This document shows positions 2,325-57,629 of a stretch of DNA of 64,000 nt, piece after piece (position 1 is the first letter of the stretch; the number at the start of each line of letters is the position of its first letter). A program made the translations under genes and the position numbers. The stretch spans positions 312,901 to 376,900 of the forward strand of contig JACPDN010000005.1 in assembly GCA_016183985.1 (NCBI GenBank), read 5' to 3'. Below the pieces are notes generated by a model. That model made no database searches. It was not told the DNA's origin and was given only the letters and a program-made list of their open reading frames with translations. This DNA is from Pseudomonadota bacterium. GTDB lineage: Bacteria > Pseudomonadota > Alphaproteobacteria > Dongiales > Dongiaceae.

Positions 2325-3130
2325 TCCAACGTCCCTGGAAACAGCTTCCACGCCCCGACTGCATCGAGATAGGGCAGCGAGGGATAATCCGTGATGGTGA
2401 GCCCGCCATCCACCGTCAGCACGGTGCCGGTAACAAAACTCGCCTCGTCCGACGCCAGGAACAGCACCGCGCGCGCAATCTCGTCCGGTGTACCCATGCG
2501 CTGCAGCAGCGAGGCACTCTTCTCCCAATCCTCCACGGCGCCGCTGCCGCCTGTGGTTTCCGTCTTGATCCAGCCCGGAGATACCGCATTGGCGCGGATG
2601 CCGTGCGGCGCACCTTCAGTCGCCAGAGATCGGGTCAGCGATTCCAGCGCCGCCTTGGCCATGCCATAGGAACCCCAATTGCCGTGCAGCGTCGCGGTCG
2701 AGGAAATATTGACGATGGCGCCCTTACCGGCCGCCTTCAATGCCGGCAGCGCATAGGCGGAGACGAAATAGGCCGAATGGAGATTAGCCGACATGATCTT
2801 GGCCAGCCGCTCGCCCGGCGTATCGTTCTTCTCCACACCCGAACGCCGCGCGCCAGCCCCGGCATTGTTGACGACAACATCCAGTCGCCCGAAATGCGCC
2901 GTGACATCAGCAATCAGCTTCTTGGCATTCTCCTCAACGCCGATATCGGCAGCAAAGGAAGCAACTATTGCACCGTCAGCCCGCAGCTTCTGAGCAGCCA
3001 CTGTGGCCTTTGCCGCATCCCGACCGACAATCGCAACCTGTGCCCCTTCAGCTGCGGCCCGCTTGGCAATGCCATAGCCGATCCCGATCGTACCGCCGGT
3101 CACCAGAACAACCTTCCCCGCAAACCGCAT
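2309..3130 (-). CDS. Short-chain dehydrogenase/reductase (FabG-like)
   Basis: TGGTIGIG, NNAG, YGMAK (YxxxK), NAVSPG; start moved to MRFAGKV (ATG 3130, GGGGAG RBS). Confidence 0.92.
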   Translation of the reverse strand: MRFAGKVVLVTGGTIGIGYGIAKRAAAEGAQVAIVGRDAAKATVAAQKLRADGAIVASFAADIGVEENAKKLIADVTAHFGRLDVVVNNAGAGARRSGVEKNDTPGERLAKIMSANLHSAYFVSAYALPALKAAGKGAIVNISSTATLHGNWGSYGMAKAALESLTRSLATEGAPHGIRANAVSPGWIKTETTGGSGAVEDWEKSASLLQRMGTPDEIARAVLFLASDEASFVTGTVLTVDGGLTITDYPSLPYLDAVGAWKLFPGTLDQSEK

Positions 3131-5292: not shown

Positions 5293-6891
5293 TCACGCCA
5301 CATGACCACGCCTCCCCTTCACATCCTTCAAAATCTCGCGTGCCGCATTGGCGCCGGCCGCACCCGAGACGTTGCCGCCCGGATGAGCGCCCGCCCCGCA
5401 CAGCCACAGGCCCGGCAGCGGCATCTTGTATTGCTGGAACGAGGCGGCCGGCCGCAGAAAGAAGACCTGGTCCAGAGTCACTTCACCGTGATGCCATTGC
5501 CCACCCGAAAGGTTGAATTGGCTCTCCATATCCTGCGGTGTCAGCACTTCGGACGCCGTCACTTGGGCTTTCACCCCCGGCGCAATCTGCTCCAGCACGT
5601 TTAGCGTCCGCTCCAGCACCTGCGTCCGCGCTTCATCTGCTGTGGTGGTGCGCAATTTGTAGGGCGCGTATTGGCTCAGGATCGACATGACATGCTTGCC
5701 GCTGGGTGCCAGGCTCGGATCGGTCAGCGTCGGCACCACGATTTCGAGCGCCGGGTTGTCGGCCACGCGACCGTATTTCGCACAATCGAAGGCATGTTCG
5801 ACGTAATTCGTCGACGGCGCGAAGATCATCCGGCCCTGCGCATTGCGGAACACGTCGGGCAGGCCATCCAATGCCAGATGCACCTTCGCCACACAGCCAT
5901 TCATGCGAAGGTGCCGCATGCGTCGCAGGAACTCGGTGTCAAGATTGCCGGGCTCCACAAGATGCAACAATGTCCGCTGCGGATCGGCGCTTGACGCGAT
6001 AATTGGTGCGCGGATTTCCTCCCCACTCGCCAGGACCACACCGACGGCTTGATCCTTTTCAATGAGGATGCGACCGACCGGCGCTTGCGTGCGGATAGCG
6101 ACGCCGGCTGCCTTCGCCGCCTGCGCCAGCGCATCGACAACGGCGCCCATCCCGCCCTGTGGCAGGAAGTGACCGCCCTGCCCGTGCTTCGTGTCCATCG
6201 ACGCCAGGCGGTAAAGCAGGTTGAAGACGGTGTTGGGCGAGCGCGGCCCCAGATAGACGCCGAGCGTCGCCTCGAGGCCCAGCAATCCTTTGAGGATATC
6301 GCTCTCAAAGAAATCGTTAGCGAGGTCCGCCACATTGATGGTGAGGATGCGGGAAAGCTCCAGCATGTCCTTCTTGCCCATCATGCGCAGCTTCAGCGCA
6401 AACATGCCGAGCGCGAGTTTGGTCTGGAAATCGTTCGAACTCGGCGATGGGCTCGGCGGCGTGCGCAACAGGAAGCTACCCAAGGCACCCGCCAGTCGCA
6501 CCAGTCGCTCCATGCGCGGGTGATAGGCCAGCGAATCCGCCTGGCTGAATTTGGCGATGGCCGCCTGCGTCGCCACCTTGTCGGAGGTGATGTCGAGCCG
6601 CGCGCCACCGGGCAGCATGGCCGAGGTGCCGATCGCCTTGTCCGCGATCTTCAGCCCGTGCTGCATCAAATCGAGATCGGCGATGATCTTGGGATGCAAT
6701 GCATGCAACAGATGGGCCACAGCCGAAACTCGGTAGCCTTTGGCGAATTCCCGCGTCCGGGCGGCACCGCCCGGCTGCTCACCCGCTTCCAGCACCAGCA
6801 CTTTCTGCCCGGCTTTCGCCAGATAAGTCGATGTCACAAGGCCGTTATGCCCGGCGCCAATGACGATGACGTCGTAATTGTTGGCGGCCAT
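5293..6891 (-). CDS. Phytoene dehydrogenase-like FAD-dependent oxidoreductase (paralog B)
   Basis: YDVIVIGAGHNGL Rossmann motif, LPQGGMGAV, GGQWHHGE, LWLCGAGAHPGGNVSGAAGANAA; start at ATG 6891, immediately after the upstream stop. Confidence 0.88.
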   Translation of the reverse strand: MAANNYDVIVIGAGHNGLVTSTYLAKAGQKVLVLEAGEQPGGAARTREFAKGYRVSAVAHLLHALHPKIIADLDLMQHGLKIADKAIGTSAMLPGGARLDITSDKVATQAAIAKFSQADSLAYHPRMERLVRLAGALGSFLLRTPPSPSPSSNDFQTKLALGMFALKLRMMGKKDMLELSRILTINVADLANDFFESDILKGLLGLEATLGVYLGPRSPNTVFNLLYRLASMDTKHGQGGHFLPQGGMGAVVDALAQAAKAAGVAIRTQAPVGRILIEKDQAVGVVLASGEEIRAPIIASSADPQRTLLHLVEPGNLDTEFLRRMRHLRMNGCVAKVHLALDGLPDVFRNAQGRMIFAPSTNYVEHAFDCAKYGRVADNPALEIVVPTLTDPSLAPSGKHVMSILSQYAPYKLRTTTADEARTQVLERTLNVLEQIAPGVKAQVTASEVLTPQDMESQFNLSGGQWHHGEVTLDQVFFLRPAASFQQYKMPLPGLWLCGAGAHPGGNVSGAAGANAAREILKDVKGRRGHVA

Positions 6892-19709: not shown

Positions 19710-20111
19710 CTACACCGCCGATTCAGCACCCCGACCGCGTTGGCGTTGGGCGAGGTATTTGGTGTTGGTGATACGCAGTTCGGTCGCCGTCGTTTCGACC
19801 AGATGATCGATGAGGCGCGTTTCCTCCGGCTTGCCTGCCGCGAACTTTCTCGCGCGGATATCGGCGGCAAGCTGGCGGCGCAGGGCGGCAAGATCGTCGC
19901 CGACATCGCGGCCGTAAAGACGCGCAAAGCTCTGCAACTCGCTGCGGCGCGATTCAGCGGCGCCTTCGAGATCCTGCTTGGCCACCGAAATGGCGCGCGC
20001 AATCATCGCGGCCTGGAATTTCTGGCGGCCGTTCAAGGTCGGCAGCAGATCTTCCTGCAATGTCGTCAGAGCCGCCTCGAGTAGCGCATCGGCGCCCGGT
20101 CGCTGCTTCAT
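19710..20111 (-). CDS. DUF6285/LvaB-like small protein
   Basis: RPGADALLEAALTTLQEDLLP, KFQAAMIARA, ELRITNTKY; overlaps the stop of the APH kinase gene. Confidence 0.65.
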   Translation of the reverse strand: MKQRPGADALLEAALTTLQEDLLPTLNGRQKFQAAMIARAISVAKQDLEGAAESRRSELQSFARLYGRDVGDDLAALRRQLAADIRARKFAAGKPEETRLIDHLVETTATELRITNTKYLAQRQRGRGAESAV

Positions 20112-21187
20112 GCGGCATCTCCTTCTTCATTGCGCTTCTTCGGCACAGGCTTGAAGCCCGGCAGGCGCAGATCGATCAGCAGGTCGTATTCCATTTCCAG
20201 CGAGACCAAGCCAGTCAGCGCCAGCTCCATCGATCGTTCGCGCCCCGAGAGATGCCGCTCTGCCTGCTCCAGCGACATGATGGCCCAGCGCAGCGCAGCC
20301 ATCTGTTCCCAGAAGCGCACCTTGCCATCGTCGACCGGTGCACCACCAGCCGCTTCGTAGCCGGCATAGAAGGCGTCGCGCCGGCCGATGCCGCCGGCCT
20401 CGGCGCTATACATGCCGAAGCGCCAGCAACGGGCGCAGAACCAGCCGAGATCCTCGTAAGGGTCCGACCAGCCGGCGAATTCGAAATCCAGCACGCCGGT
20501 AAGGCCGGCATTCTCGACGAGGTAATTGCCGGTGCGGAAATCGCGGTGACAGAACCGGATGACATCACCGCCGCGTGCATAAGCAGGTGCCTCGTCTTCC
20601 AGGCGGTTGACCGCCCATTCCAGCACCGGCTGCGCTTCAGGCAATGCGTCGAGGCGGCGGCGAAATTCGGCAAGCCGCGCTGCCACCAGATCGGCGGCCG
20701 GTGCCGGCAGGAAGGCGAGATCCGCCTGTGCCGCAGCCGGTGCAATGCGATGAAGCTTGGCAAGTTCGGCGCCAAGCTCTTGTGCCAGGGCATCGCCCTC
20801 CTCTTCCTCCAGCGCCCGCACAAGCTTCCTGGGATCGGCGGAACCGGAAAGGCGCTGCGTCAGGTGAAAGGGCTGGCCGATGACGGATCCTGTTTCCTCC
20901 AGCCACAGAGGCTGCGGCGCCTTGACCCCAGCGGCATGCACCACTTTGAGCAGGGCGAACTCCTGCGCCTTGCCCCAGCTTTCGTCGATACCGGATGGGG
21001 CGTCGGCGCGCAGGATCGCGGCAATGGTCTTGCCATCGATCGCGAGATCGACCGCCCAGTTCTCCTGAATGGCGCCGCCGCCCAGGCGACCGACGAGTTT
21101 GACGGCGACCTCCTTGGCGCCGGTCGCGCGGCGCAGGAATGCCTCGATGGCAGCGATATTATTGGCGAGCATGACGCTCAACCCCAT
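20108..21187 (-). CDS. APH/choline kinase-family phosphotransferase (LvaA-like)
   Basis: GGGAIQENW, AQEFALLK, FCHRDFRTGNY, GVLDFEFAGWSDPYEDLGW; start may be at 21172. Confidence 0.88.
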   Translation of the reverse strand: MGLSVMLANNIAAIEAFLRRATGAKEVAVKLVGRLGGGAIQENWAVDLAIDGKTIAAILRADAPSGIDESWGKAQEFALLKVVHAAGVKAPQPLWLEETGSVIGQPFHLTQRLSGSADPRKLVRALEEEEGDALAQELGAELAKLHRIAPAAAQADLAFLPAPAADLVAARLAEFRRRLDALPEAQPVLEWAVNRLEDEAPAYARGGDVIRFCHRDFRTGNYLVENAGLTGVLDFEFAGWSDPYEDLGWFCARCWRFGMYSAEAGGIGRRDAFYAGYEAAGGAPVDDGKVRFWEQMAALRWAIMSLEQAERHLSGRERSMELALTGLVSLEMEYDLLIDLRLPGFKPVPKKRNEEGDAA

Positions 21188-22377
21188 TTCCAGAAATCGG
21201 CGCCTTCAGCAGCCAAATGCTGCGCCAGGACCATCTTATGCACTTCCGACGCGCCATCGACGAGGCGCGCTTGCCTTGCATAGCGATAAATCCATTCAAG
21301 AATCGTGTCCTTGGAATAGCCCTTGGCACCCAAAAGCTGGATGGCGGTGTCCACGGCCTTGTGCAGGCAGTCAGCCACGGCGACCTTGGCCATCGACACT
21401 TCTTTGCGCGCGCGATGACCGAGATCGAGCTGATAGGCGGCATTGAAGGTGAGCAGCCGGCCCATCTGCACCTGCATCGCGGCTTCGCCCAGCATCCATT
21501 GCACGCCTTCATGTTCCATCAGCTTGGTGCCAAAGGCTTCGCGCGCGCCGACATGCTGGACGGCAATGTCGAGGCAGCGCTTGGAAAGGCCCAGCCAGCG
21601 CATGCAATGCGTCAGCCGTGCAATGCCGAGGCGGATCTGCACAGCCTTCAACCCCTCGCCCACACCCATCAGGCGGTCGGCATCGTCTATCTCGAGCCCG
21701 TCGAATATGAGCTCGCAATGGCCGCCATGCTCTTCCGGCCCCATGATCGGGATGCGGCGTTCGATACGCCAGCCGGGCTGACTGCGGTCGAACAGAAAGG
21801 CCGTGAGGCCGCGGCGTGGATCGTCGGCGGTGCGCGCCAGCAGGATGAAATGCTCGGCCGCTTCACCGCCGGTGATGAACCATTTGTGGCCGCGGATGAT
21901 CCATTTGTTGCCGCGCTTCTCGGCAGTCGTCTTCATCATGCCAGCGGGGTCGGAGCCAGAGCCGGGTGCCGGTTCCGTCATGACGATGGCAGAGCGCACC
22001 TCGCCATGGACGATCGGCATCAACCAGCGCTGCTGCTGCTCGGGAGTTGCCACGCGCGCGAGTAGATGGATGTTGCCGTCATCGGGTGCGGCGATGTTGA
22101 AACAGACGGGACCGAAGATGGAGCGGCCGGCAGCCTCGTAGATCGGGACCAGCTCGGTGAATTTGAGGCCCTTGCCGCCGAGATGTTCGGGCAGCTGGAA
22201 GTTCCACAAGCCGGCCGCCAGCGCCTTGGCGTGAAGCTGCTGCAGCAGTTCCTCACGGATATTCTCGCCGGCGTCGAAACTGGCGCGCTCACGCTCCAGC
22301 GGGATGACGTGTTCGTCGAGGAAGGAATCGATGCGGCGGACGTAGTCGGCAGCGCGCGGGCTGATCGAGAAATCCAT
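21178..22377 (-). CDS. Acyl-CoA dehydrogenase (LvaC-like)
   Basis: FNIAAPDDGN, SAIVMTEP, RGHKWFITG, QIRLGIARLTHCMR, ARLVDGASEVH. Confidence 0.93.
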   Translation of the reverse strand: MDFSISPRAADYVRRIDSFLDEHVIPLERERASFDAGENIREELLQQLHAKALAAGLWNFQLPEHLGGKGLKFTELVPIYEAAGRSIFGPVCFNIAAPDDGNIHLLARVATPEQQQRWLMPIVHGEVRSAIVMTEPAPGSGSDPAGMMKTTAEKRGNKWIIRGHKWFITGGEAAEHFILLARTADDPRRGLTAFLFDRSQPGWRIERRIPIMGPEEHGGHCELIFDGLEIDDADRLMGVGEGLKAVQIRLGIARLTHCMRWLGLSKRCLDIAVQHVGAREAFGTKLMEHEGVQWMLGEAAMQVQMGRLLTFNAAYQLDLGHRARKEVSMAKVAVADCLHKAVDTAIQLLGAKGYSKDTILEWIYRYARQARLVDGASEVHKMVLAQHLAAEGADFWKWG

Positions 22378-22389
22378 GGGTAGGGCTTT

Positions 22390-23154
22390 CTAAAGGCTGG
22401 AATTGAGGTGGCCGCCGTCGACGGTGAGCACGGCGCCGGTCATGTAGCGCGAGGCATCGCCGGCCAAAAGCAGCAGCGGGCCGTCGAGATCCTGCGGGTT
22501 GCCCAAACGCCGTTGCGGGATGCGTTTGACGAGCGCGGCGCCGGCTTCGGTATTGAAGAATGCGTCGTTGAGAGCGGTCCGGATATAGCCCGGGGCCAGC
22601 GCATTGACGCGAATATTGTGTCGCGCCCATTCCAGGGACAGGGCCTTGGTCATCTGGATCATCCCGGCCTTGGAGACGGCATAGGGCAGCGTTTGGGCGG
22701 CGACGCGCTGGCCGAGGATCGAGGCGATATTGATGATGTTGCCCGGGCGCTTTGCCGCCACCCAGCGGCGGGCCGCTTCCTGAGCCGCCAGCCACGCGCC
22801 TTTGAGATTGGTGTCGATGACCTGATCCCAATCGCTGTCGGGGAGTTCCAACGACGGCGTGGTAAGCGAGACTCCGGCATTGTTGATGAGGAGTGAGATC
22901 GGCCCCAGCTCGTTCTCGGCGGCGGCAAAAGCGGCGTTAAGCCCCTTGGCCAGCGTGATGTCGCCAGTGACGGACACAGCCTTCAATCCCCGCGCGCGGA
23001 GCTTCTCAGCCTCGGCAGCGACGACGTCGCCGCGTCGGGCCATCAGGGCCACCGCCGCGCCGGCTTCCGCGAGGACGGATGCGAAATGCCGCCCCAGATC
23101 GCCGGATGCACCGGTCACCAGGGCTACCTGCCCGGAAAGATCGAACGCCGCCAT
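22390..23154 (-). CDS. SDR oxidoreductase (LvaD/FabG-like)
   Basis: TGASGDLG, NNAG, YAVSK, RVNALAPG; start moved to MAAFDLSG. Confidence 0.92.
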   Translation of the reverse strand: MAAFDLSGQVALVTGASGDLGRHFASVLAEAGAAVALMARRGDVVAAEAEKLRARGLKAVSVTGDITLAKGLNAAFAAAENELGPISLLINNAGVSLTTPSLELPDSDWDQVIDTNLKGAWLAAQEAARRWVAAKRPGNIINIASILGQRVAAQTLPYAVSKAGMIQMTKALSLEWARHNIRVNALAPGYIRTALNDAFFNTEAGAALVKRIPQRRLGNPQDLDGPLLLLAGDASRYMTGAVLTVDGGHLNSSL

Positions 23155-23233
23155 CCTCGCCCCTGATCTTCTTATCTTCACGCCGGATGGCACTATGCCC
23201 GGGGGCGACGATGAAGGGAAAGGCTTCGACGTC

Positions 23234-23273
23234 AAAAAATGAAACCCGCCGCGGCCTCGGCCCGGCGGGTTTC
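23234..23273 (-). terminator. Intrinsic terminator closing the intergenic transcript
   Basis: Minus strand GAAACCCGCCG-loop-CGGCGGGTTTC then ATTTTTT. Confidence 0.85.
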
Positions 23274-23592
23274 GCTTTGTCTTTATGTCGCAGGGATCTA
23301 ACTGGGCGGATCGGGATTGAGGAGAACCCACGTTTCACCGCCGCCCTTAGGCCCATGACTGCTGCCCAGAACAGGCAGCATGAGAAAGGCCCCTCGGTAT
23401 CCCTGGTTCTCACATCAGAGATTTCAATCTGCTGTGGTAGCCAGATTGTGGTGTCTTATCGCCGGTGGAGTCATGTTTCTTAGGCACCCTCCTTGGCTTG
23501 GTTGCGGGAAGCACTTCCGCAAAGCCAGCTTGGACCCCCGTCTCCTGGAAGGGGGAAGCGGCGCTGGAAGATCCAGAAATCGCGCGCTTCCC
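23234..23592 (-). ncRNA. Candidate ~350-nt structured non-coding RNA, family not recognised
   Basis: Between a sigma70-like promoter and an intrinsic terminator; no credible ORF; at least 7 local stems and 2 long-range pairings (see findings). Confidence 0.5.
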
Positions 23593-23620
23593 ATCTTGCA
23601 CAGGGGCGCCTAGAAGTCAA
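23593..23620 (-). promoter_or_regulatory. Sigma70-like promoter TTGACT-N16-CAAGAT
   Basis: -35 TTGACT at 23620-23615, -10 CAAGAT at 23598-23593, AT-rich upstream tract. Confidence 0.55.
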
Positions 23621-23672
23621 GAATTACGCAATAAATATGCGCGTATTGCGCAGCATTTATTCCGAATATTAC

Positions 23673-24200
23673 TTACTTCTTGCCGGCCTCGATCGACTTG
23701 CGGATGAGATCAACCGCCTCTTCCGGCTCGGCCCAACGCGAGAACTTCACCCACTTCCCCTTCTCCAGATCCTTGTAATGGCTGAAGAAATGGCGGACCT
23801 GCTCGCGCAGGACTTCCGGCAGGTCGCGATACGAGCTGACGTTCGAATAGAAGGGATGCAGCTTGTCGACCGGCACCGCGATAATCTTTTCATCGCCGCC
23901 GGCCTCGTCTTCCATCATCAGGCAACCGACAGGGCGCGAACGCACGACGGCGCCGGGAACGACGGGGGTGGGCCCCAGGACGATGATGTCCAAGGGATCG
24001 CCGTCGCCACCCAGGGTATGCGGGATGAAGCCATAATTGCCGGGGTAGAACATTGCCGTGTAGAGGAAGCGGTCGACGAACATCGCGCCCGAATCCTTGT
24101 CGAGCTCGTATTTCACCGGCGTGCCGCCGAGCGGAATCTCGATGATCGCGTTGAGGTCGTAAGGCGGGTTCTCGCCGATCTTGATCTTGCTGATATCCAT
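23673..24200 (-). CDS. ppa: Inorganic pyrophosphatase (family I)
   Basis: IIEIP, KYELDK, VDRFLYTAMFYPGNYGFIPHTLGGDGDPLD, DEAGGDEK, HYKDLEKGKW; start at MDISKIK. Confidence 0.97.
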   Translation of the reverse strand: MDISKIKIGENPPYDLNAIIEIPLGGTPVKYELDKDSGAMFVDRFLYTAMFYPGNYGFIPHTLGGDGDPLDIIVLGPTPVVPGAVVRSRPVGCLMMEDEAGGDEKIIAVPVDKLHPFYSNVSSYRDLPEVLREQVRHFFSHYKDLEKGKWVKFSRWAEPEEAVDLIRKSIEAGKK

Positions 24201-39532: not shown

Positions 39533-39608
39533 TGGTGGGCGATGACGGACTCGAACCGCCGACATTCTCGGTGTAAACGAGACGCTCTACCAACTGAGCT
39601 AATCGCCC
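39533..39608 (-). tRNA. tRNA-Val(TAC)
   Basis: GGGCGATTAGCTCAGTTGGTAGAGCGTCTCGTTTACACCGAGAATGTCGGCGGTTCGAGTCCGTCATCGCCCACCA; 76 nt with encoded CCA. Confidence 0.97.
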
Positions 39609-57215: not shown

Positions 57216-57337
57216 AATAAATCCCCTTACTGTCATTCACGCCGGATGGGGATATCGCATCTTGATCGGCCGGCATCTTTCGACGTCACCTCGATCACAC
57301 CGCGCGGACACCCCGTCCGGAATACGGATTCGCTTCG

Positions 57338-57555
57338 CCGCTGGCAGGTCTCCTGGCTCACGAGTGACTGGCGGCGCCACCTTCCCAACCGATCTCGGCA
57401 CTTTTGCGTACCGTTTCTCGGCCAGTGGTTACTTCGGCGTCCGCCCCTCGCTTACAGTTGCGGGGGCAGTCACGGCTTTGGCCCCTATTTGGGTCGTCCG
57501 CACCGTGTTCCCTATTAATCCCCTGGAATCTATCCATTGGGGAACCATCGACATC
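57338..57555 (-). ncRNA. Cobalamin (AdoCbl) riboswitch
   Basis: GGTTC, AATAGGGAACACGGTG, GACTGCCCCCGCAACTGTAA, CCACTG, TGGGAAGG, GAGCCAGGAGACCTGCC; upstream of cbtB. Confidence 0.95.
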
Positions 57556-57629
57556 CGATCATTCGCCGAGCCGTCACGCGGCGTCAAGGAATTTGTCCAA
57601 TCCCCGACGGCCAGACATCTGCTTTTCTC

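Follow-up and report, generated by a model that had tools for sequence, protein, structure and literature searches.

An uncatalogued family of structured small RNAs with a near-invariant Shine-Dalgarno/AUG hairpin in soil Alphaproteobacteria

The subject of this study is a small RNA gene located in a stretch of 64,000 nucleotides (nt) of contig JACPDN010000005.1 (assembly GCA_016183985.1, forward-strand positions 312,901 to 376,900), from a bacterium of the family Dongiaceae; this whole stretch is called the window hereafter, and positions are counted from its first letter. Between 23234 and 23620, the minus strand carries a promoter-like site, a structured RNA of about 350 nt and a U-tailed terminator, and the segment that follows the promoter holds no long conserved open reading frame (ORF). 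The RNA gene is placed between the terminator of ppa, whose stop codon is at 23673 on the minus strand, and what looks like the separate promoter of an lva-like SDR/ACAD/APH operon (ACAD, acyl-CoA dehydrogenase). The SDR gene starts with an ATG at 23154, 80 nt past the U-tract of the RNA, in agreement with a preliminary description of this DNA made from its letters only. At about even confidence, we read this element as a stand-alone structured small RNA whose family, found in soil Alphaproteobacteria, is new and uncatalogued, and which would engage the ribosome through a hairpin that gates its Shine-Dalgarno (SD) sequence and AUG. The limits of the gene, its conservation, the covariation of its helices, its presence as RNA and its independence from the neighbouring operon are established here. 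The features of the locus, from ppa towards the SDR gene, are as follows (A2 is an alignment of six close homologues; L numbers designate homologous or comparison loci; MFE, minimum free energy).

23630-23652, minus strand: intrinsic terminator of ppa, UGCGC-AAUAC-GCGCA then UAUUUAUU (terminator scan; kept in the closest homologues)
23593-23620, minus strand: promoter-like site with -35 TTGACT (23615-23620), a 16-nt spacer and -10 CAAGAT (23593-23598), TGTG standing ahead of the -10
23234-23586, minus strand: predicted primary transcript of about 350 nt (promoter and terminator positions, RNA contigs, fold z = -3.6)
23513-23572, minus strand: 5' domain, a long irregular hairpin of AUCUUCCAGC with GCGGAAG(A)U (RNAalifold on A2 and pair counts)
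23494-23527, minus strand: alternative helix UGGCUU (23522-23527)/AAGCCA (23494-23499), directly 5' of the SD (by eye; also in the local MFE fold)
23467-23494, minus strand: core, with SD AAGGAGG (23488-23494), hairpin and AUG (23472-23474) (sequence comparison; whole-RNA MFE)
23424-23474, minus strand: candidate micro-ORF AUG ACU CCA CCG ... UGA, product MTPPAIRHHNLATTAD (every homologue begins MTPP)
23425-23448, minus strand: hairpin CAAUCUG(GCU)...(AGC)CAGAUUG (conserved in all ppa-linked homologues)
23409-23420, minus strand: small hairpin CUC(U/A)G...(C/U)GAG (helix 8 of A2)
23289-23406, minus strand: 3' domain, closed by CCAGGGAU (23399-23406) and AUCCCUGCG (23289-23297) (helix 9, RNAalifold on A2)
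23234-23272, minus strand: intrinsic terminator AAACCCGCCGG...CGGCGGGUUU, stem 23242-23272 and U-tract 23234-23241 (compensatory changes in L019)
23152-23222, minus strand: promoter-like motif of the operon, CUUUCCC (23216-23222) and GGGCATAGTG (23191-23200), with the SDR start codon (23152-23154); outside the RNA gene, whose limit it marks

The ppa terminator separates ppa from the RNA gene. The TTGACT-N16-CAAGAT promoter and the strong U-tailed terminator were both found where the preliminary description had put them; the promoter falls below threshold in a generic sigma-70 scan because its -10 fits the consensus at three of six positions only. A -35 of the type (C)TTGAC stands at the equivalent place in the homologues (TTGAA in L019), a TGTGCRA/TATGCGA -10 region is common to the closest homologue group, and the -35 together with the TGTGCRA motif is seen again in L001, L005, L006, L007, L013 and L019. 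From this promoter, the transcript would start near 23586.

The same description had offered a novel large non-coding RNA as one of two readings and had seen no hallmarks of tmRNA, RNase P, SRP, 6S or familiar riboswitches; the second statement is confirmed and the first is supported, on account of the searches that follow as well as of conserved homologues, covarying helices and RNA contigs in many metatranscriptomes. The covariance models of Rfam 15, among them those of tmRNA, RNase P, SRP, 6S, riboswitches and the alphaproteobacterial ar7/9/14/15/35/45, gave no match between 23100 and 23750 at gathering threshold; at E <= 10, the best scores were 14-20 bits against thresholds of 35-104, mostly on the terminator hairpin, and the match to a known family that had been named beforehand as a possible refutation appeared at neither setting. 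Rfam 15 also left the RNA unmatched in 12 homologous loci. ARAGORN detected no tmRNA, one-piece or permuted two-piece, its sole find in the window being a tRNA-Val; moreover, an SD and an AUG go with the micro-ORF, whose endings (...TAD, ...LL or ...HC) are unlike those of tmRNA tag peptides. A long protein-coding frame was rejected, as single-nucleotide indels between homologues disrupt every long frame, and Pfam recognises no family in the six longest ORFs that overlap the region on either strand. An exact-pattern scan of viral contigs and a BLASTN search of PLSDB plasmids with the window RNA and one RNA of the short group (see below) both returned zero matches, and a full-text literature search for core sequence strings and for small RNAs of Dongia or soil gave nothing relevant.

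Word matches in Logan showed that about 38 nt (23456-23493) are common to the window and to many metagenomes and metatranscriptomes. The exact core pattern was found at 8 loci in GTDB species genomes and at 10 metagenome loci, the genome loci being hosted by Dongia spp., one Stellaceae metagenome-assembled genome (MAG) and uncultured Alphaproteobacteria. As these loci had been ascertained by the core pattern itself, we also gathered loci via the neighbouring ppa protein and then scanned them with a covariance model of the core. This collection of ppa-downstream homologues, which had been suggested in the preliminary description, brought in new versions: L019, L033/34 and L037-39 keep GGAGGGUG and CAUGACUCCACCGGCG exactly, their differences being confined to the apical loop and the pair that closes it. 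The homologues now total 18 distinct sequence versions (Dongia/Dongiaceae, Stellaceae-like and other uncultured Alphaproteobacteria), four of which were obtained by synteny and not by pattern.

These versions fall into a form of about 280-350 nt after ppa in Dongia-like genomes, the window included; two more ppa-linked forms with different 5' domains; a form of about 155 nt (the short group) between a quinone-oxidoreductase-like (QOR) gene and a convergent phasin gene; and one form divergent from zur-znuC. L033 and L037 are intermediates that join the groups, as they combine the window-type 23425-23448 hairpin with the GCCCGG...CCGGGC hairpin of the short form. The family is modular, with variable 5' and 3' domains around a near-invariant hairpin of about 30 nt. 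As expected of a trans-encoded (Hfq-type) base-pairing sRNA, the -35/-10 is conserved by lineage and the ppa-linked groups have U-tract terminators; in the short group, this role falls to a shared bidirectional hairpin whose U-tract is poor. The core covariance model (R1) finds a single copy in the 64-kb window.

Presence is patchy, with filled and empty sites among related genomes, and a synteny search with distant QOR homologues (67-76% identity) added zero members, the sites being empty or rearranged. In the short group, the RNA body is flanked by the QOR stop codon on one side and a hairpin on the other; in empty relatives, this hairpin is the shared terminator of the convergent genes; the short RNA gene therefore stands before a pre-existing bidirectional terminator. 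Indeed, the "empty" QOR/phasin spacer of related genomes (L045/L046 1919-2001, compared with L002 1042-1317) is 84 nt long and still carries the hairpin GAACCCCGCC...GGCGAGGTTC; either an insertion or a deletion may account for the difference. Upstream of the short homologues (L002-L004, L009-L011, L016, L017), we noted a conserved palindrome, GTTTCAAG-N9-11-CTTGAAAC, overlapping CTTGAAA-N14-CTTACGT(G), which resembles a sigma-32- or ECF-type promoter more than a sigma-70 one; the short form may therefore be stress-induced. The form divergent from zur-znuC (L008, about 2600-2800, minus strand; same as L015) lies divergently to genes for a Fur-family (Zur-like) regulator and a znuC-like ABC ATPase, and the product of its micro-ORF would be MTPPGCQ.

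The core, about 30 nt long, reads (A)AGGAGG-G-UG(C/U)-loop-(N)CAUG-ACU-CCR-CCN in all homologues; apical loop and closing base excepted, GGAGGGUG and CAUGACUCC are identical in 18/18 distinct homologues. It folds into a hairpin in which GGAG pairs with CUCC below a 3-4-bp apical stem, GUG(C)/(G)CAU, the loop being CUAAGAA in the window. This apical loop is purine-rich and 7-9 nt long (variants CUAAGAA, CUAAAAA and CUAACCA, and one version shorter by 1 nt); the pair that closes it is C-G in the short group versus U-A in L033. The hairpin is part of the whole-RNA MFE structure; its stability is low (-5.6 to -10 kcal/mol) and does not exceed that of shuffles, so that conservation bears on sequence and not on stability. 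The most conserved segment is purine-rich and partly paired, and the strong SD is paired to a CUCC located within codons 2-3 of the micro-ORF.

The micro-ORF itself has 7, 12, 16 or 23 codons and an MTPP start in every version, with a spacer of 13 nt between GGAGG and AUG (12 in one version). Three observations speak for genuine translation: changes in codons 3-4 are limited to CCA/CCG/CCU, that is, to wobble positions; in the 7-codon group the stop is retained at one position as UAG, UAA or UGA; and the micro-ORFs of L006 and L007 differ by 3 nt, all synonymous.

Around this core, the RNA is strongly structured: over 362 nt, its MFE is -150.8 kcal/mol, compared with -131.4 +/- 5.4 for dinucleotide shuffles (z = -3.6; 0/100 as good). 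RNAalifold gave 83 pairs on A2, with 92% of cells paired; these six close homologues show 10 compensatory pairs, against 4.1 +/- 1.5 in column shuffles (0/500) and 1-7 in slid controls. Good support was obtained for the apical stem 23552-56/23535-39, the core hairpin, 23425-48, 23399-406/23289-297, 23341-46/23304-09 and the terminator. The short group folds into three hairpins, the first of which bears the core at its tip, plus the terminator; the covariation of this group, taken alone, is not significant because there is too little variation.

In the 5' domain (helices 2-4), the apical stem UCCCC/GGGGG (23552-56/23535-39) shows compensatory changes and bears the loop CUUCCAGGAGAC, and comparative folding favours the pairing of AUCUUCC (23566-72) with GGAAG(A)U (23513-19). 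The alternative helix at 23494-23527 competes with part of this long hairpin; counterparts read by eye are UGGCAG/CUGCCA in L005 and CUGGUU/AACCAG in L019. Downstream of the core, the 23425-48 hairpin is invariant, except for a U.G variant and a longer stem in L037, and the small hairpin at 23409-20 is swapped for the GCCCGG...CCGGGC hairpin in L033 and L037 and for its counterpart in the short group. Helix 9, which closes the 3' domain, has 8 bp, is 100% paired and shows an A-U to G-C swap; it persists around an interior whose length goes from about 24 nt in L007 up to about 92 nt in the window. The domain encloses a conserved ACCGAGGGG (23390-98), a lineage-specific hairpin (23354-82) and a GGGCGG/CCGCCC helix (23341-46/23304-09; helix 11), which covaries.

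The stems listed in the preliminary description met with mixed fortunes. Those at 23535-39/23551-55 and 23304-09/23341-46 covary, and 23425-31/23442-48 is invariant (U.G in L037); the far pairing announced for 23399-23411 stands for 23399-406 with 23289-297, through the 8 bp and the swap of helix 9. Two proposals find no support in the comparison: the closing helix CAUGACU (23354-60/23469-75), with the hairpins drawn within 23354-23412, relies on a lineage-specific insertion that is absent or different in L007, L005 and L019, the 3' arm existing in the window's lineage only; and the 5'-most stem (23553-60/23585-92) is not conserved in L005 or L007 and lies partly upstream of the expected start.

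The core was also found in 24 RNA runs, sampled in soil, rhizosphere, sludge and elsewhere, some of them just 13-54 million bases in size. The RNA contigs are 130-262 nt long, with several variants per run, and the longest ones take in 23285 to about 23558. In the small runs X5, X37 and X18, the contigs over 23285-23538 measure 207-262 nt, and next to nothing falls on ppa, SDR and ACAD; over the 6-kb stretch around the locus, the depth of the RNA is 6.6-10.8 in these three runs, bearing in mind that expression is only poorly gauged by the depth of Logan contigs. The larger run X8 covers conserved parts of the coding genes too. Contig ends recur near 23285 and at about 23552-23558 (X7, X8, X18, X28, X37), leaving out the first 30 nt or so after the predicted start and the terminator hairpin; they may mark a processed species of about 270 nt or be coverage or assembly effects only. 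The RNA is apparently abundant, and its abundant species may measure about 270 nt.

What would this RNA do? Binding to the ribosome, translation of the micro-ORF and any target are predictions drawn from the conserved core, and a number of points weigh against a role as a message. Between the window and L013, the micro-ORF has three non-synonymous changes; all ppa-linked lineages keep the same wobble bases in ACU CCA CCG GCG, and these frozen third codon positions suggest a constraint on RNA sequence rather than on the peptide. Beyond MTPP, the peptide is not conserved between groups, in sequence or in length (7-23 codons); the SD-AUG spacing of 12-13 nt exceeds the optimum; and both AUG and SD are partly base-paired. 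One has to keep in mind, in addition, that most homologues were ascertained by a pattern that fixes part of the core, and that the RNA contigs are strandless.

The most serious alternative, which we hold to be a real though less probable possibility, is a non-coding structured RNA that is never a message and whose invariant hairpin binds a protein or an RNA (as a scaffold, sponge or base-pairing seed), the SD, the AUG and MTPP being a by-product. It draws on the same frozen third codon positions, unconserved peptides, helix-bound SD and AUG and long spacer, and further on the weakness of a hairpin conserved for its sequence and on a multi-domain fold and high abundance reminiscent of stable ribonucleoprotein RNAs. 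It would, however, require that a full SD, an AUG at constant spacing and a stop codon in frame come together by coincidence in 18/18 versions, and it does not account for substitutions in codons 3-4 at wobble positions only; nor did we find a candidate partner for the hairpin, the one complementarity noticed, to 16S 939-952, being no better than shuffles. In that match, the invariant CAUGACUCCACCG (window 23459-23475, minus strand) is complementary to E. coli 16S 939-952, CGGUGGAG-CAUG(U), at 13/14 positions with one bulge (L044); the duplex energy is -21.3 kcal/mol versus -20.8 +/- 1.8 for shuffles, and the match is therefore taken as chance, which disposes of 16S mimicry or antisense pairing.

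Other roles for the core or the peptide were considered and rejected. A type I toxin mRNA does not fit, the peptides being hydrophilic and 7-23 aa long and not hydrophobic membrane peptides; on the opposite strand, our signal scan gave terminator-like hairpins and no promoter-like site, an antisense RNA gene as such not having been sought. Mimicry of an anticodon loop by CUAAGAA is at odds with a loop that varies in length (7-9 nt) and in sequence (GCGGAAA in one metatranscriptome variant), and a CsrA-type sponge with the five GGA motifs counted by hand, about the number expected by chance.

The preliminary description had also envisaged a long attenuator of the lva-like operon, an idea that gives way before the comparison of loci and that we now regard as very unlikely. 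It supposes a cis-acting leader in which translation of the micro-ORF decides between termination at 23242-72 and readthrough into SDR/ACAD/APH, and would be in keeping with the co-orientation of RNA and operon and with a leader-like micro-ORF upstream of a strong terminator, itself 80 nt from the start of SDR. Orthologous ppa-SDR-ACAD-APH loci nevertheless exist without the element, the spacer being then 115-163 nt, in Dongia soli and three other lineages (L020, L021, L028, L040-43). The RNA, for its part, is followed in other ppa-linked lineages by a FecR-like gene or a convergent GFA gene, and the short homologues lie between convergent genes; across the family, the downstream gene is SDR, FecR, convergent GFA or convergent phasin, with no consistent co-oriented target. 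A motif CTTTCC...GGCA(T/A)(A/G)GTG is found between terminator and SDR in loci with and without the element, which suggests that the operon has its own promoter. Lastly, the RNAalifold results contain no conserved antiterminator, that is, no alternative pairing with the 5' arm of the terminator, the two competing helices being both in the 5' domain. Regarding the operon itself, the SDR, acyl-CoA dehydrogenase and APH-type kinase genes (window about 20100-23154, minus strand) form an lva-like cluster whose linkage to ppa is conserved in Dongiaceae (L019-L021, L028, L030-32, L040-43); in one lineage, APH and DUF6285 directly follow ppa, and SDR and ACAD are missing.

That the element is a functionless remnant kept by chance, either a small mobile insertion or what is left of a vanished gene at its 5' end, would suit its patchy presence in filled and empty sites of related genomes and its differing neighbourhoods, but is hardly credible given a core near-invariant while lineage flanks have diverged, covarying helices, a promoter and terminator kept in each lineage, RNA present in many environments, no second copy in the window and, by eye in the filled and empty sites (no repeat search was made), no terminal repeats or target duplications.

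Coming back to a small RNA that would engage the ribosome through its SD/AUG hairpin, the closest analogue is, by resemblance, the pair rreB/rreR, alphaproteobacterial small mRNAs of about 165 nt with a small ORF of 14-18 codons, whose SD comprises 16-17 contiguous nt perfectly complementary to the 16S 3' end and lies partly inside a hairpin (Hahn et al. 2016, RNA Biol, PMC5711450). These RNAs bind the 30S subunit strongly, are translated weakly and undergo start-codon-dependent turnover; for rreB, 30S binding and ribosome-dependent turnover have been demonstrated (PMC5711450). The rre RNAs and the window RNA alike are transcribed on their own in Alphaproteobacteria, each with a dedicated promoter and terminator, and in each a strong SD-type site partly hidden in a conserved hairpin precedes a tiny ORF; in both, the RNA is conserved above the peptide across clades and the context varies between orders. 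However, an rre is defined by at least 16 nt complementary to the 16S 3' end and ending at the first base of a GUG start (PMC5711450), whereas the window core CCAAGGAGGGUGCC, set against AGAAAGGAGGUGAUCC, has AAGGAGG (7 nt) as its longest contiguous match, plus UG past a bulged G, and its AUG lies 12-13 nt downstream of the SD. Our search of the window with the rre pattern (<=3 mismatches) gave nothing at the core site. The window RNA is also about twice as long as an rre and has extra domains, the family ranging from about 155 to 350 nt with micro-ORFs of 7, 12, 16 or 23 codons that have only MTPP in common, a comparison made with the published description of rre. The complementarity that defines rre failing here, the window RNA is not a member of that family.

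A looser analogue would be sRNAs derived from attenuators, such as rnTrpL of Sinorhizobium meliloti, which acts in trans and encodes the leader peptide peTrpL, both RNA and peptide reportedly having trans functions (PMC6614838, PMC7298713). As described there, rnTrpL too is short and structured, with a micro-ORF of the leader type and a terminator; it lies upstream of trpE(G) and has Trp regulatory codons and a classical terminator/antiterminator switch (PMC6614838, PMC7298713). The window RNA, unlike rnTrpL so described, has no conserved downstream gene, no antiterminator that we could find and, as repeated codons, only two Pro (codons 3-4). As for 6S, tmRNA, RNase P, raiA, HEARO and RNAs of the ROOL/GOLLD type, they share with the window RNA a discrete, abundant, multi-helix nature and their own transcription signals, but their covariance models are unmatched, a tRNA-like domain is absent, and size and architecture differ.

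If the ribosome is indeed engaged, the RNA would act in trans, at the ribosome, and not on the gene downstream. The weak SD/AUG hairpin would gate 30S binding. A ribosome that initiates on the micro-ORF and pauses at Pro-Pro would unfold the hairpins immediately downstream, and their opening would alter the fold, stability or activity of the RNA. In its fullest version, the RNA would be a translation-sensing riboregulator, a gated dock where the length of a pause at Pro-Pro (codons 3-4), sensitive to EF-P or to the supply of prolyl-tRNA, sets an active versus a degradable fold of the downstream domains and so reports translational capacity; we put this forward as a speculation of low probability.

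Soil, rhizosphere and activated sludge commonly host Dongia-like Alphaproteobacteria, and this RNA surfaces in metatranscriptomes far more readily than its neighbouring genes, yet is uncatalogued; a definition of the family would improve the annotation of environmental transcriptomes. Beside the poorly understood rre class, its SD/AUG hairpin would be a second, differently built example of small alphaproteobacterial RNAs that seemingly act on ribosomes, on which a defined family with a testable core offers a direct handle.

Some additional RNA features were observed in passing. In L017, about 60-200 nt downstream of the RNA homologue, a sigma-70-like promoter, TTGACA-N17-GATATA, precedes a structured, GC-rich leader, GGUUCCUCCGGUCGAGCUCGGGG...GGUGAAGGAG, on which no family reaches the Rfam gathering score. 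The Dongia MAG locus L001 carries a manganese (yybP-ykoY) riboswitch at 6578-6789 (minus strand; 57 bits). In the window itself, the sole Rfam/ARAGORN matches are, both on the minus strand, a cobalamin riboswitch at 57326-57564 (107 bits) and the tRNA-Val(TAC) at 39533-39608.

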